This document shows positions 4,273-40,561 of a stretch of 64,000 bases of DNA, piece after piece. The first letter of the stretch is position 1, and each line of letters begins with the position of its first letter. Below the pieces are notes generated by a model that did not search any database, was not told where the DNA came from, and saw only the letters and a list, made by a program, of their open reading frames with translations. The stretch spans positions 800,001 through 864,000 of the forward strand of contig CAXXGI010000001.1 in the NCBI GenBank assembly GCA_963674695.2. Direction: 5' to 3'. The position numbers were made by a program, and so were the translations under genes. Source of the stretch: a bacterium (GTDB taxonomy: Bacteria > UBA10199 > 2-02-FULL-44-16 > JAAZCA01).

Positions 4273-4416
4273 ACATCATCCGCCAGTGTGTTTTGCGGGG
4301 ACCGCCGTCTCGGCTTACACGCCGCCTCGACGGCTTTTTCTTCTTTCATCGCAGCATTATAGGCTTCGATCGCGATGAAAGAAGAGATCCCCTACAAACA
4401 CACTGACGGACGATGT
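4273..4416. repeat. ~145 bp palindromic MITE/REP-like element, copy 1
   Basis: Imperfect terminal inverted repeats acatcatccgccagtgtgttt / aaacacactgacggacgatgt and two internal hairpins. Near-identical inverted copy at 40414-40561. Confidence 0.85.
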
Positions 4417-21203: not shown

Positions 21204-22674
21204 GAACCCATCCTCAGATCTGCGCGACCGCACGATCGCTGAACTCGCTTCGCTTCTGCATGCGCGCGAGATCTCTGCGCGCGAGGTGACCGAAACCTAC
21301 CTGGCCGAAATCTCCACGCGCGATGAGACGCTTGGCTGCTATCTCACCCAGACGCGCGAACGCGCGCTCGCTCAGGCCGACGCCGCCGATGCACGTCTGA
21401 GCGCGGGCACAGACCTCACGCCGCTCACCGGCATCCCCATCGCGCTCAAAGATATTTACCTCACCGAAGGCGTGCGCACGACCTGCGCCTCGCGCATCCT
21501 CGAAGACTATATCGCCACCTACGACGGAACCGCAGTGGCGAAACTACGAGCGGCGGGCACGGTCCTGTTGGGCAAGCTCAACATGGATGAATTCGCTATG
21601 GGCAGCTCGAACGAACACTCCGCCTTCGGGCCGGTGCGCAACCCCTGGAACACCGACTATGTCCCGGGCGGATCGAGCGGGGGCTCCGCCGCCGCAGTGG
21701 CCGCGGGTCTGGCCGCAGGGACGTTCGGTACCGATACCGGCGGGTCGATCCGACAGCCTGCAGCCCATTGCGGCGTGGTCGGCATCAAGCCGACCTACGG
21801 AAGGGTCAGCCGCTTCGGCGTGATCGCGTTTGCCAGTTCGCTCGACCAGGTCGGGCCCTTGGCCCGCACCGTGCGCGATGCCGCGCTCCTGTTGGAGGCT
21901 GTGGCCGGTCACGACCCCCATGATGCCACCTCGATCCCTGCACCGGTTCCCTGTTATGCCGATGCGCTCACCGGAGACGTCAACGGCCGCATCATCGGCC
22001 TGCCCCGTGAATATTTCGGCGAGGGCATCGATGCGGAGGTCGTCGTGGCGGTCAAGAAGGCCGCCGCCCACCTCGAGGGCATGGGGGCGAAGATCGAGGA
22101 GATCTCGCTCCCGCACACGCGTTATGCCGTCCCCTGCTACTATATCATCGCCCCGGCCGAGGCCTCCTCGAACCTGGCGCGCTACGATGGCATCCGCTAC
22201 GGCCTGCGCGTCAACACCGGCGGCGACCTGGACGAACTCTACGAGGCCACGCGGACGCAGGGCTTCGGCCCGGAGGTGCGGCTGCGGATCATCGTCGGCA
22301 CGTTCGTCCTCTCGTCGGGCTACTACGACGCCTATTACCGCAAGGCGCAGCAGGTGCGCACGCTGATCAAAGAGGACTTTACGAAGGCCTTCGAGCGCTG
22401 CGATGCGATCCTCGGTCCGGTCACGCCCACACCACCCTTCAAGCTGAATGAAAAAATCGACGACCCGATTGCGATGTACATGAGCGATGTGCTGACCATC
22501 CCCACGAGCCTTGCAGGGCTGCCCGGCATGTCGCTCCCCTGCGGGATCTCGAAGGCGGGGCTCCCCATCGGCCTACAGCTGATCGGAAAACCCTTGGAGG
22601 AAGCGACGATTCTCAACATCGCGCACGCATACGAACAATCGACGGAGTGGCATAGGAAGGTACCGGTTCGATAG
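21193..22674 (+). CDS. gatA: Asp/Glu-tRNA amidotransferase subunit A
   Basis: Amidase signature [28 protein letters not shown]. Confidence 0.98.
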
Positions 22675-22807
22675 TCCGATAGTCCGATGGTTCGTCGGTT
22701 ACAGCGTTTCGATTCCATGGTAGAGCGTCAAGCTGCATCGAACCATCGAACCATCGAACCATCGAACCATCGAACCATCGAACCATCGAACCATCGAACC
22801 ATCGAAC
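22665..22807. repeat. Inverted 8-mer tandem-repeat junction element (gatA-gatB)
   Basis: Left arm ggttcgat/agtccgat, core, then CATCGAAC x9. 22689-22752 matches 57471-57534 at 58/64. Confidence 0.9.
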
Positions 22808-38029: not shown

Positions 38030-38626
38030 ATGGCCTTCAATCGCAAAGATCACTTCTACCAGCGCGCCAAGCGGGAGAAAAAGGCTTCGCGCGCGGTCTA
38101 TAAGATTGAGGAGATGCAGCGCCGCTTCCGCCTCGTCGCAAAGGGGGATTGCGTCCTGGATCTGGGCTGCGCCCCGGGCGGCTGGCTGCAGGAGCTCTCG
38201 CCGCTCGTGGGCCCCAAGGGAAAGGTGATCGGCATCGACCTGTTGCCGCTCAAGATCGCGCCGCCGAAACACTGCACGGTCCTTCTCGGCGACCTGACCG
38301 ACGCCGCGATGCAGGAGGAGATCGCCACGCTCGCCGGGGGAGATGTGGATTGCGTCTGCTCCGACATGTCGCCCAACCTCTCGGGCATTCCGTTCGCCGA
38401 CGCCTACCGCTCCTTCGAAATCGCCAGCCTCGCCCTCGATGTCTGTCATCGCCTGCTCAAGAGTGGCGGCCACTTCGTCGTGAAGATCTTTCCCGGCGAA
38501 GAGTTCGAGGGATTCATGCGCACGCTCAAGACCGAATTCAATCGCGTGCAAACCATCGTCCCCGAAGCCACCCGCAAGACCTCATCGGAGCGCTACATCG
38601 TTGCGCTGGGATACCGGAGAGACTGA
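38030..38626 (+). CDS. rlmE: 23S rRNA Um2552 methyltransferase
   Basis: SRAVYK, DLGCAPGGW, SDMSP, VVKIF, SSERY (K-D-K-E). Confidence 0.95.
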   Translation: MAFNRKDHFYQRAKREKKASRAVYKIEEMQRRFRLVAKGDCVLDLGCAPGGWLQELSPLVGPKGKVIGIDLLPLKIAPPKHCTVLLGDLTDAAMQEEIATLAGGDVDCVCSDMSPNLSGIPFADAYRSFEIASLALDVCHRLLKSGGHFVVKIFPGEEFEGFMRTLKTEFNRVQTIVPEATRKTSSERYIVALGYRRD

Positions 38627-38799
38627 CATTCGCACCGCATATGAAACCATCTCATCGCCCTGCAATTCGAATCCTTCCCGTCATTGAACCTGAGTGCTCC
38701 GGCCGGTGAAGTTACCCTGTTGTAGCGCTGGCGCTCCGCTTGCACGTTTTGGCATCTGACTCGATCCGTCTTTCCTCATGAACTCATATGGATGCCCAG

Positions 38800-38980
38800 T
38801 GTGTCAATAGGGTGATCGTGCTTAAAGCGATGTTGTCTTCAATGAGCTTCAAGGGCTTTCAACCTCATATCCGCGTGCTGGTTAACGCATTAAGTTGAAT
38901 CCGATTGAAGCCTTTCCACAATCTCACCTCGGATATTGAAATCCATGTTCATGTCGTGGGCTGCTTCATTCCCCGCTTAA
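38800..38980 (-). ncRNA. Predicted bridge/seek RNA of the IS1111 element
   Basis: Contains matches to the target (CAUGAAC, GGUGAG) and to the circle junction (AUUC, AUAUGAG). Ends are approximate. Confidence 0.7.
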
Positions 38981-40117
38981 TTAAGCCTCCACAGCTTTAA
39001 GCTCCCTATCAACCCCCCTCAATGATTCCCAAATAAAACACAGCAACTCTCGTCCACATGCAACCTTCACCTTGTTTTTCTCTTTTCCCCGGCACAGCAA
39101 TCTACTCGACTTTTGATGCAACCGCTTCATACATCGATCGGCAATGGCTATGTATCGTTCATCTGTACCTTTTCTCATTTCCTTGAGTCGTTTGCTTACC
39201 CTTGGAATTCGAGCAGATGACTGGCATGCTTCTATCACACCGGTTCGTATATGCCGATTTCCCATCTTGCTCATGCTGAATCGATGCTCTTTTCCTCCTG
39301 AACTATATTCCCTCAAGTCCATGCCCGCATAGGAACAGAGCTTCCGTGGATGTGCAAAACGGGAAATATCTCCTATCTCTGTAATAAGGGTCATGGAGGA
39401 TAACGTGTCTAAGCCTCGATAACACCGCAAGGAATCCACTTTCTTTTTATAAAATGAGCTTTGAGCCAACCGCGCGATCTCCTTTTCATAGCAACCGATC
39501 TCTAGCTCTACCTGCTTTAAATGCATCAATAAGGAGTGAATGTTAAATTGGAAAACCTGGCTTTTATGCTTGGATGTTTGTCTTGATAGCCACTCCCGGT
39601 GCACCGCTGTCCAGTATTCTCGTCCTTTTCCCTCTTCGGTTCGATAATGAATCCCAGCGCAACGACAGGCTGAGAGGATATGCCTCTTGAGCTCCTTTGA
39701 TTGTTCTTTGAGGAACTTCCTGGAACGAACGATGCTTCGGACACATTCTTCCTCAGCATCAGGCACATGCACTATGCTCAGTTCACCGTTTCTGTAATTC
39801 CGCGCGAAGCTTCTACAATCGATCTTGTCTGTTTTTACAAATTTACCGGGCTTCTTTGGAATGAGAGAAGAGGCTATGACGTCGCAATGCCAGCCATGGG
39901 CCGAGAGATCCCGTTGAAGAGAAAATCCCAAATAAGTGCTCTCGTAGCATATTTTCAATTCTCCATTCTCCCCCCTGAGGGCATTTAACTTCTTCACCAA
40001 ATGAGCTACATTGGGCCTGCACGTAAAAGAAAACGTTTTTTCGGAATCGTTCTCTACCGCATGACCATGGAACGCATTATCATCGACATCAATACCAACA
40101 TAGACTATGTTTTTCAT
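38981..40117 (-). CDS. IS110-family DEDD recombinase/transposase
   Basis: YVGIDV, CYEST, VKTDKID, and Tnp20 motif SYAGM..YSSG..SKMGN. Confidence 0.96.
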   Translation of the reverse strand: MKNIVYVGIDVDDNAFHGHAVENDSEKTFSFTCRPNVAHLVKKLNALRGENGELKICYESTYLGFSLQRDLSAHGWHCDVIASSLIPKKPGKFVKTDKIDCRSFARNYRNGELSIVHVPDAEEECVRSIVRSRKFLKEQSKELKRHILSACRCAGIHYRTEEGKGREYWTAVHREWLSRQTSKHKSQVFQFNIHSLLMHLKQVELEIGCYEKEIARLAQSSFYKKKVDSLRCYRGLDTLSSMTLITEIGDISRFAHPRKLCSYAGMDLREYSSGGKEHRFSMSKMGNRHIRTGVIEACQSSARIPRVSKRLKEMRKGTDERYIAIADRCMKRLHQKSSRLLCRGKEKNKVKVACGRELLCFIWESLRGVDRELKAVEA

Positions 40118-40413
40118 CTGGATGCCCCCCTTCGATGAGTTAAATAATTTCACCCATAGTGAATTATTTATGAGTTAACCAGCGCTCGTTACATCAAGGG
40201 CTGGGCATCCATATATTCTCGCCCGCCGGCGGAATAAGAACACATTAGATTTCTGGCGGGCTCAAACATCATTCGGAATTTCGCCTTCGGCGAAACCGTC
40301 GGCTCTTCGCAGGCCAAAACGGCACGCTCCGCGAGGCACTACAACAGGGTAACTTCACCGGCCGGAGTAGAGTCATCTCTCATGCATACAATCATAGGAA
40401 GTCACAAACATGA

Positions 40414-40561
40414 ATCCATCGTCCGGCAGTGTGTTCGGAGGGGATCTCTTCTTTCATCGCGATCGAAGCTTATGATGATGCGATGAAAGAAGAAAAAGCC
40501 GTCGAGGCGGCGTGTGAGCCGAGACGGCGGTCCCCTCCGAACACACTGCCGGACGATGGAT
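40414..40561. repeat. ~145 bp palindromic MITE/REP-like element, copy 2
   Basis: Perfect 31-bp terminal IRs (40414-40444 / 40531-40561); inverted copy of 4273-4416. Confidence 0.88.

Follow-up and report, generated by a model that had tools for sequence, protein, structure and literature searches.

The window analysed here is a stretch of 64,000 nt from a bacterial genome (GTDB lineage Bacteria; UBA10199; 2-02-FULL-44-16; JAAZCA01; NCBI GenBank assembly GCA_963674695.2, contig CAXXGI010000001.1, positions 800,001 to 864,000 of the forward strand), the host assembly of which consists of 3 contigs (C1 to C3) and 3.03 Mb. Its minus strand carries an insertion sequence (IS) at 38783-40220 which, judged from its sequence, is an intact IS110-family element with an IS1111-type layout. 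The element comprises a left end of ~100 nt, a transposase gene and a non-coding right end of 195 nt, and it interrupts a copy of a hairpin-shaped repeat. A preliminary description of the locus had proposed that the right end encodes an RNA with guides for target and donor alike. All strings listed there were found on the minus strand at the positions given, and we kept its limits for the element, which include both copies of the shared core; counting one AG, the net element measures ~1436 bp.

The transposase/recombinase gene (38981-40117, minus strand, stop codon included) is open and codes for 378 aa. Profile searches revealed the Pfam domains PF02371 (Transposase_20; E = 4.2e-16) and PF01548 (DEDD_Tnp_IS110; E = 1.2e-7), both above their cut-offs, and the NCBIfam model NF033542 'IS110 family RNA-guided transposase' (186.6 bits; cut-off 140). 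From the columns that are invariant in 23 family members, the protein retains D12, D13, E59, D97, D100, S273 and G274. The catalytic acidic residues and the SG motif are presumably among these. The only relatives with a solved structure are the transposases of ISCro4 (E = 9e-8) and IS621 (E = 4e-7), which matched with the C-terminal part only, and identity to the commonest group on enterobacterial plasmids amounted to ~24%. A wider search detected 691 proteins at E <= 1e-30, the closest of them 57% identical, located mostly on IS-sized metagenome contigs. The open reading frame (ORF), the IS110 domains, the subterminal repeats and the longer right end all agree with the intact IS1111-type element of the preliminary description. 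Placement in the IS1111 subgroup follows structural criteria (subterminal repeats, predicted right-end RNA, guide order) and not a protein clade; the element probably comes from an uncharacterised clade of the known RNA-guided kind. Rfam 15 revealed no relevant match at E <= 1 for 38500-40500 of the window, and a search of this genome with the element DNA as query detected no orphan copies of the guide RNA.

On the minus strand the left junction reads GGCGGGC-GAG-AATATA, with GAG at 40220-40218, and the right junction CCATAT-GAG-TTCATG, with GAG at 38785-38783. Subterminal inverted repeats of 14 bp (left, 40201-40214; right, 38786-38799) match each other perfectly and belong to a motif family that is kept in homologues, where they measure 11-17 bp. 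A second copy of the element is located on another contig (C3:391972-393409); it has identical ends and 99% identity over positions 1-1438, which shows that the ends of the element are exact. Where the flanking repeat is uninterrupted, the sequence across the insertion point is GGCGGG(C/T)G-AG-TTCA(C/T)G, and a 1.4-kb paralogue of the second copy's surroundings (92.8% identical) is empty, with its flanks joined by a 2-nt overlap. Both confirm the reconstruction of the empty target as GGCGGGC-GAG-TTCATG. A search for other insertions, as the preliminary description had suggested, led to the second copy, which sits at the same position of a homologous repeat and not in an unrelated target.

Insertion is thus site-specific, with a shared 2-nt core and without the usual kind of target duplication, since both copies occupy the same point of homologous repeats and AG is present at both junctions in most homologues. 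The core had previously been given as GAG. Nearly all homologues show AG at the left junction (40218-40219 in the window), preceded by a variable base, and the right end always brings its own G; homologue right ends read ATG, ACG, GTG or AAA followed by AG (38783-38784 in the window), or by AA in 6 loci. AG makes up the conserved core. Of the Gs that precede it, the one at 40220 is part of the target and the one at 38785 is the final base of the right end, so that, on this comparison of sequences, the GAG of this element is AG with a coincident G. The six homologues with AA at the right junction (L058, L074, L076, L077, L083, L086) have AG at the left junction and in the RNA guide, which may bear on the point of strand exchange within the core.

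For the comparison we assembled 86 candidate loci, namely 4 from species genomes, 80 metagenome loci and the two local copies. The protein scan of genome contigs had yielded 5 loci, of which L007 (a 65-residue match) was dropped. Six of the 86 loci were discarded because the start-motif filter gave no ORF, and 19 further loci because no right-end repeat motif was found inside the available sequence. The 61 loci kept correspond to 55 distinct right-end sequences, and 51 of them have at least 8 nt on both flanks. Their anatomy is shared: left target, AG, 5 nt, subterminal repeat, gene and right-end region are followed by an outward TTGAC-like hexamer, the second subterminal repeat, 3 nt, AG and the right target. 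The lengths of the right ends range from 182 to 372 nt. The idea that the whole clade targets long palindromes is not supported: among 44 loci whose two flanks each extend over 60 nt or more, a long inverted repeat in the flanks was detected in just 3.

The right end of the element contains a predicted target-binding module (38907-38967; this and all following features of the element lie on the minus strand), in which an outer helix, an inner helix and an apical hairpin are arranged around an internal loop. The outer helix pairs 38967-38963 with 38911-38907, the inner helix 38959-38955 with 38920-38916 (CCACG with UGUGG in this element), and the apical hairpin spans 38945-38930. CAUGAAC (38953-38947) and GGUGAG (38928-38923) had been put forward as guides for the right and the left target, with the proviso that they should lie in loops rather than stems; both are located in the internal loop between covarying helices. 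In each aligned homologue, the segment corresponding to CAUGAAC reads as the reverse complement of the right flank of that element and usually runs into the core, and the segment corresponding to GGUG plus AG repeats its left flank plus AG. The left guide thus has the same sense as the left target GGCG-AG and would pair with the bottom strand, with one G-U pair. CAUGAAC precedes GGUGAG, and the order is the same in all aligned homologues; within the clade, left guides comprise 4-9 nt and right guides 5-8 nt.

To compare guides and targets quantitatively, each RNA was scored in two ways, against the flanks of its own element and against those of elements having different guides (51 loci). The contiguous match on the left averaged 3.0 nt for own and 0.48 nt for cross pairings, and the anchored match on the right 5.1 nt and 2.6 nt, respectively. 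Left matches of at least 4 nt were found in 21 of 51 own pairings (cross, 1.6%), right matches of at least 5 nt in 33 of 51 (cross, 3.2%). The covariation of guide and target that the preliminary description had called for is hence present for both halves of the target, and CAUGAAC and GGUGAG covary with their own flanks across these homologues as target guides should.

Six helices were drawn by hand and then counted on the alignment of 55 sequences. Pairing was possible in 75.1% of the helix cells, compared with 31-45% when the partners were slid by 1-3 columns, and none of 500 shuffles reached the observed covariation score. The inner target helix was paired in 86% of cells and the helices of the apical hairpin in 81-92%. 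Many double changes are located in the inner and apical helices; one pair of the inner helix, for example, is A-U in 31, G-C in 11 and U-A in 11 sequences.

A second predicted module, for the donor, is centred on a hairpin (GCGU...ACGC, 38873-38888) with the apical loop UUAACCAGC. Its stem is paired in 100% of cells in the 55 sequences, with double changes at 2 of 4 pairs. AUAUGAG (38870-38864), previously proposed as the left donor guide, has the same sequence as the right tip of the element followed by the core, and its last five bases covary with this tip: in 46 of 52 distinct elements the corresponding 5-mer matches the tail of the right end plus core, among them all nine with variant tails (ACGAG in 5, GTGAG in 2, AAAAG in 2), and five of the six mismatches are the AA-junction cases mentioned above. 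The proposed right donor guide AUUC (38900-38897) was not supported by the comparison. In homologues the aligned position does not track the left ends, homologues with the same letters have different left ends, and the UC of AUUC lies in a proposed base stem (UCAAC/GUUGA). By our own arithmetic for the 195-nt region, the chance expectation is ~0.01 for each 7-mer and ~0.09 for GGYGAG, but ~0.75 for ATTC; three of the four guide matches are therefore unlikely to have arisen by chance, and the match of AUUC, a chance-level 4-mer, is not. A different candidate, suggested by family homology, is AACUU (38892-38896), the five bases just 5' of the hairpin, which would complement the first five bases of the left end. 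This assignment is uncertain and overlaps the proposed base stem: own pairings matched slightly better (3.7 of 5 positions) than cross pairings (3.25 of 5), with complete 5/5 matches in 11 of 53 and 3.2%, respectively. According to Durrant et al. (PMC11208160), the donor-binding bases of many IS1111 orthologues lie in a multi-loop and not in a simple loop, and the ambiguity on this side would fit such a placement.

Two further motifs lie between the donor module and the right tip. CUCAU (38842-38846) is the reverse complement of the left-donor-guide 5-mer; an exact reverse complement of this 5-mer occurs within 40 nt downstream in 21 of 55 elements, compared with 2.4% of cross pairings, and the corresponding helix is paired in 60% of cells. 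CUCAU may sequester the left donor guide or read the other strand. The outward-facing, -35-like TTGACA was read directly at 38807-38802, 16 nt before GAG, with the spacing that the preliminary description had reported, and 30 of 52 homologues have TTGAC 16-17 nt ahead of the core. By analogy with published accounts of ISEc11, ISEc21 and IS621, a promoter could form here at the junction of a circular form.

The target of the element is a copy of a hairpin-shaped repeat of ~250 nt, which in the window extends from 38697 to 40367 (minus strand) when the insertion is included. Its outer arms (40367-40339 and 38725-38697) form a perfect inverted repeat of 29 bp, and its multi-branched, conserved core of ~180 nt is split into 40337-40221 and 38782-38725. 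The insertion point is the 3' foot of a GCCCGCC/GGCGGGC hairpin within the repeat. A BLAST search of this genome with the core of one unit revealed 18 matches, corresponding to 11 full-length empty copies, 2 filled copies with two halves each and 3 partial copies. Five of the empty copies are located on C1 (1002756, 1003835, 440969, 112565, 113842), three on C2 (72164, 227438, 271514) and three on C3 (206907, 220044, 385780). The outer inverted repeat, measured in 13 copies, has 17-37 bp with 0-3 mismatches, and 29-37 bp in 12 of them. The copies are intergenic and show no fixed orientation to neighbouring genes. The repeat behaves like a repetitive extragenic palindrome (REP) or a miniature inverted-repeat transposable element (MITE) serving as a landing pad, which is usual for IS110/IS1111 elements.

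With both copies of the IS flanked by homologous sequence (left side, ~120 nt; right side, 60 nt), it could be argued that IS and repeat move together as one composite and that the apparent target is part of the element. Eleven full-length copies of the repeat without an IS contradict this. The two IS copies are moreover 99% identical, whereas the repeat cores around them share just ~83-93% identity with the query copy, and homologous IS of other organisms lie in unrelated flanks. The distributions of the two also differ. A BLAST search with the core was negative in all 21 other genomes of the order. With a covariance model derived from the 11 cores, full-length matches were obtained in 8 other genomes among 92 sampled in the phylum; 6 of these are among the 12 members of the same family, copy numbers reach 10 in a single genome, and outer inverted repeats occur there as well. 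The repeat persists across several genera, and the transposase was not found at E <= 1e-40 in the 21 other genomes of the order, seven with the repeat included. We regard a composite as extremely improbable.

The two local copies of the element differ at 10 of 1438 positions (99.3% identity). Nine of the ten differences are clustered within element positions 1220-1307 (window 38914-39001, 88 nt), a segment that contains the stop codon and the target module. Four lie in the apical loop or at the base adjoining the right guide, and one changes a base of the left guide (U in the window, C in the other copy). All 8 non-coding differences map by eye to positions that are unpaired in the hand-drawn helix model, namely to the guide base, the apical loop and stretches without pairing. 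Contigs from three public sequencing runs of one study show both variants of the target loop. Joints that skip the element in these contigs were considered as excision products and rejected, because 6 other letters identify them as paralogous empty copies of the repeat. A circle junction was not listed among the contigs of the three runs, and contigs cannot show rare forms.

The best explanation of these data is a complete IS110-family element of IS1111-type organisation whose right-end RNA would read a target inside the hairpin repeat, to which we assign a probability of roughly 0.9 on the basis of the sequence comparisons. The 3' non-coding right end would encode a structured RNA of ~130-190 nt. 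The element would excise as a circle abutting its two ends, by analogy with IS621, ISEc11 and relatives, and this circle would place the outward TTGACA ~16-18 nt from a -10-like sequence. A complex of recombinase and RNA would subsequently carry out recombination between the circle junction and a DNA site matching the target loop, with strands exchanged at the AG core. The recognised site would be GG(C/T)G-AG-TTCATG at the 3' foot of the hairpin, making the repeat a landing pad. RNA production, circle formation, the junction promoter and present-day activity are steps that we infer, and the natural diversity of guides and targets suggests that the system could be reprogrammed.

Several observations weigh against this explanation. 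The outer target helix and the donor base stem are paired in just 64% and 60% of cells, respectively, which is partly a problem of alignment. RNAalifold recovered only the 4-bp donor hairpin from the MAFFT alignment of the 55 sequences, a poor yield that we attribute to the gappy alignment, and the helices counted above were drawn by ourselves. Folding of the single sequence gave -48.5 kcal/mol (z = -0.89), and 39 of 200 shuffled sequences folded as well. A right donor guide is not established, and in this element the candidate pairs at 3 of 5 positions only. The protein shows at most 35% identity to any transposase of a plasmid collection (tblastn), is without a close named relative and, with 378 aa, falls outside the range of 330-350 aa that PMC11187229 gives for the IS1111-type elements treated there. 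At the sites, the window copy with its guide GGUG needs one G-U pair at GGCG, and the second copy has the guide GGCG and its own site GGTG, which results in a C-A mismatch. Two perfect sites for the guides of the window copy (C3 ~719888 and C3 ~714128) are unoccupied; one of the two lies in a partial copy of the repeat and one outside the repeat.

The guide-like matches might instead be by-products, such as captured pieces of target, with the protein alone finding the site and the structure serving as a terminator or an mRNA element. The unremarkable folding of the single sequence and the shortness of target recognition (~4+2+6 nt) speak for this, as does an RNA that is predicted from sequence. 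Such a view has to account for position-specific covariation with both flanks in dozens of divergent elements, for one segment being sense and the other antisense as in the experimentally shown systems, for a left donor guide that covaries with the tip of the element, for covarying helices next to the loop and for a match to a family model named RNA-guided transposase. We consider it very improbable and retain the RNA-guided explanation.

Site occupancy speaks for the RNA-guided explanation. The full site GGYG-AG-TTCATG is present in none of the 11 full-length empty copies of the repeat; the two full-length copies having this site are the two occupied ones. TTCACG or TTCGCG is found in most empty copies, the left half is AGCG in one, and CG replaces AG in two. 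Each copy's left guide would perfectly fit the site of the other copy, for which action in trans, tolerance at this position and later mutation are possible reasons. The element might also be correctly read but immobile, a relic whose two copies arose by segmental duplication and not by transposition. There are only two copies, a segmental duplication of 1.4 kb lies near the second one, and the perfect sites named above are still unoccupied. Conversely, the copies do not share a contig, the repeat copies that contain them differ in outer arms and neighbours, and the paralogue of the second copy's site is empty; the ORF is open, the family-invariant residues are kept and the copies have hardly diverged (99.3% identity). 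A relic therefore appears unlikely to us, and an element able to move by RNA guidance remains the preferred explanation.

The class of RNA-guided mechanism was established in 2024 (PMC11208160; PMC11187229). The present element resembles the IS1111-type elements covered in these papers (ISEc11, ISKpn4, ISPa11, ISPst6) in its DEDD transposase with PF01548 and PF02371, in its subterminal inverted repeats (14 bp here, 7-17 bp reported), in a long non-coding region downstream of the gene, in an outward -35 element at the right end and in a specific site inside a repeated, hairpin-forming sequence. The guide order also corresponds, as in the IS1111-type seekRNAs described in PMC11187229 the top-strand match lies 5' of the bottom-strand match, whereas the order is reversed in the IS110 type. 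Besides the length of the protein, a motif differs: G--P----SG of the described elements reads G--L----SG here (G-M-D-L-R-E-Y-S-S-G, read by eye), so that the element may lack these protein features of the IS1111 subgroup. With IS621 and ISCro4 of the IS110 group (PDB 8wt6, 9t56), the element shares predicted target and donor modules and, as set out for IS621 in PMC11208160, the strand rules, by which each loop reads two strands, the bottom one through its left guide and the top one through its right guide. In contrast to these two, its RNA lies in the right and not in the left end, the guide order is reversed, the subterminal repeats are long and sequence similarity is marginal; the core on the transposase strand is AG (CT on the other strand), compared with CT in IS621. 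ISPpu9 and other REP-inserting IS110 elements, in the accounts of PMC12288879 and of Tobes and Pareja (2006), likewise use a multi-copy extragenic palindromic landing site, but the repeat described here is a multi-branched sequence of ~250 nt with copy-specific arms and not a short REP.

These comparisons indicate that sequence alone is enough to read a bridge/seek RNA of the IS1111 type, and they provide ~50 natural pairs of guide and target from one uncharacterised clade with an AG core. The covariation of the left donor guide supports a two-module model, which in the published descriptions we draw on has been shown experimentally for IS110-group elements only. The known mechanism is unchanged by this; the analysis explains a 1.4-kb interruption of an intergenic repeat in the host genome and marks the hairpin repeat, the less expected part, as a conserved structured family worth its own study.

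A small hairpin in the left end of the element carries the loop motif GCTGGTTAAC (40174-40183, minus strand), which shows 10 nt of complementarity to the donor hairpin's apical loop (38877-38886). Complementarity of at least 7 nt was found in 29 of 52 distinct homologues, compared with a mean of 4.7 nt after shuffling. In the one lineage with a different donor loop the left-end motif has changed too, and of its two members L030 keeps 7 nt and L033 keeps 5. Several single-base variants of the loop are without compensation, for which reason a shared protein-binding motif is as likely as pairing. A kissing-loop contact might link the transposase leader to the guide RNA. The left-end complementarity is not among the features of IS1111-type elements in the published descriptions drawn on here.

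The repeat was also analysed in its own right. One copy folds at -146.6 kcal/mol (z = -12.5). Across 11 copies, 92% of the helix cells are paired, compared with 32-46% when the partners were slid, and 30 of 33 pairs of the outer stem have changed on both sides. The sequence of the outer arms is specific to each copy, yet the two arms of a copy pair almost perfectly; arms that differ almost completely and are still paired imply either templated copying of one arm or strong selection for the duplex. For 10 loci with empty copies, a comparison with Rfam was negative at E <= 1 as far as relevant families are concerned. Tentatively, and with more doubt than confidence, the repeat may represent an undescribed class of structured multi-copy element (RNA or single-stranded DNA), with the IS as a parasite specific for its foot. 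Two other readings of the repeat were discarded. Integron attC sites do not fit, since conserved outer R-box-like ends are absent and the conserved part is central and not terminal (by eye). Pre-existing host palindromes as the source of the outer arms were rejected because arms of different copies are recognisably homologous and show paired changes. Scanning for perfect stems (18 bp or longer, with loops of 3-15 nt) gave 97 hits, none of which resembled an empty form of these arms by eye.

These 97 hits are dominated by another conserved palindromic repeat family. Palindromes of ~70 bp with perfect stems of 27-33 bp, loops of 11-15 nt and conserved arms occur genome-wide, with about two dozen copies in the scan (e.g. 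C1:409120, C1:566778, C3:411503). At one locus with the hairpin repeat (L092, C1:112400-115700), three copies in the same orientation are spaced 1.3-1.6 kb apart, and the small genes between them, assigned by eye only, resemble a RelE/HigB-type toxin with a helix-turn-helix (HTH) antitoxin and an XRE-type regulator. A further small repeat adjoins the interrupted copy at 40414-40561 and is found again at 4273-4416; its arms of ~30 nt, with a complementarity of 100% in one copy and 83% in the second, enclose a centre of 86 nt, and, as in a MITE, the two copies have homologous arms. Elsewhere in the window, short tandem word repeats are arranged as inverted blocks at 22665-22807 and 1697-1832.

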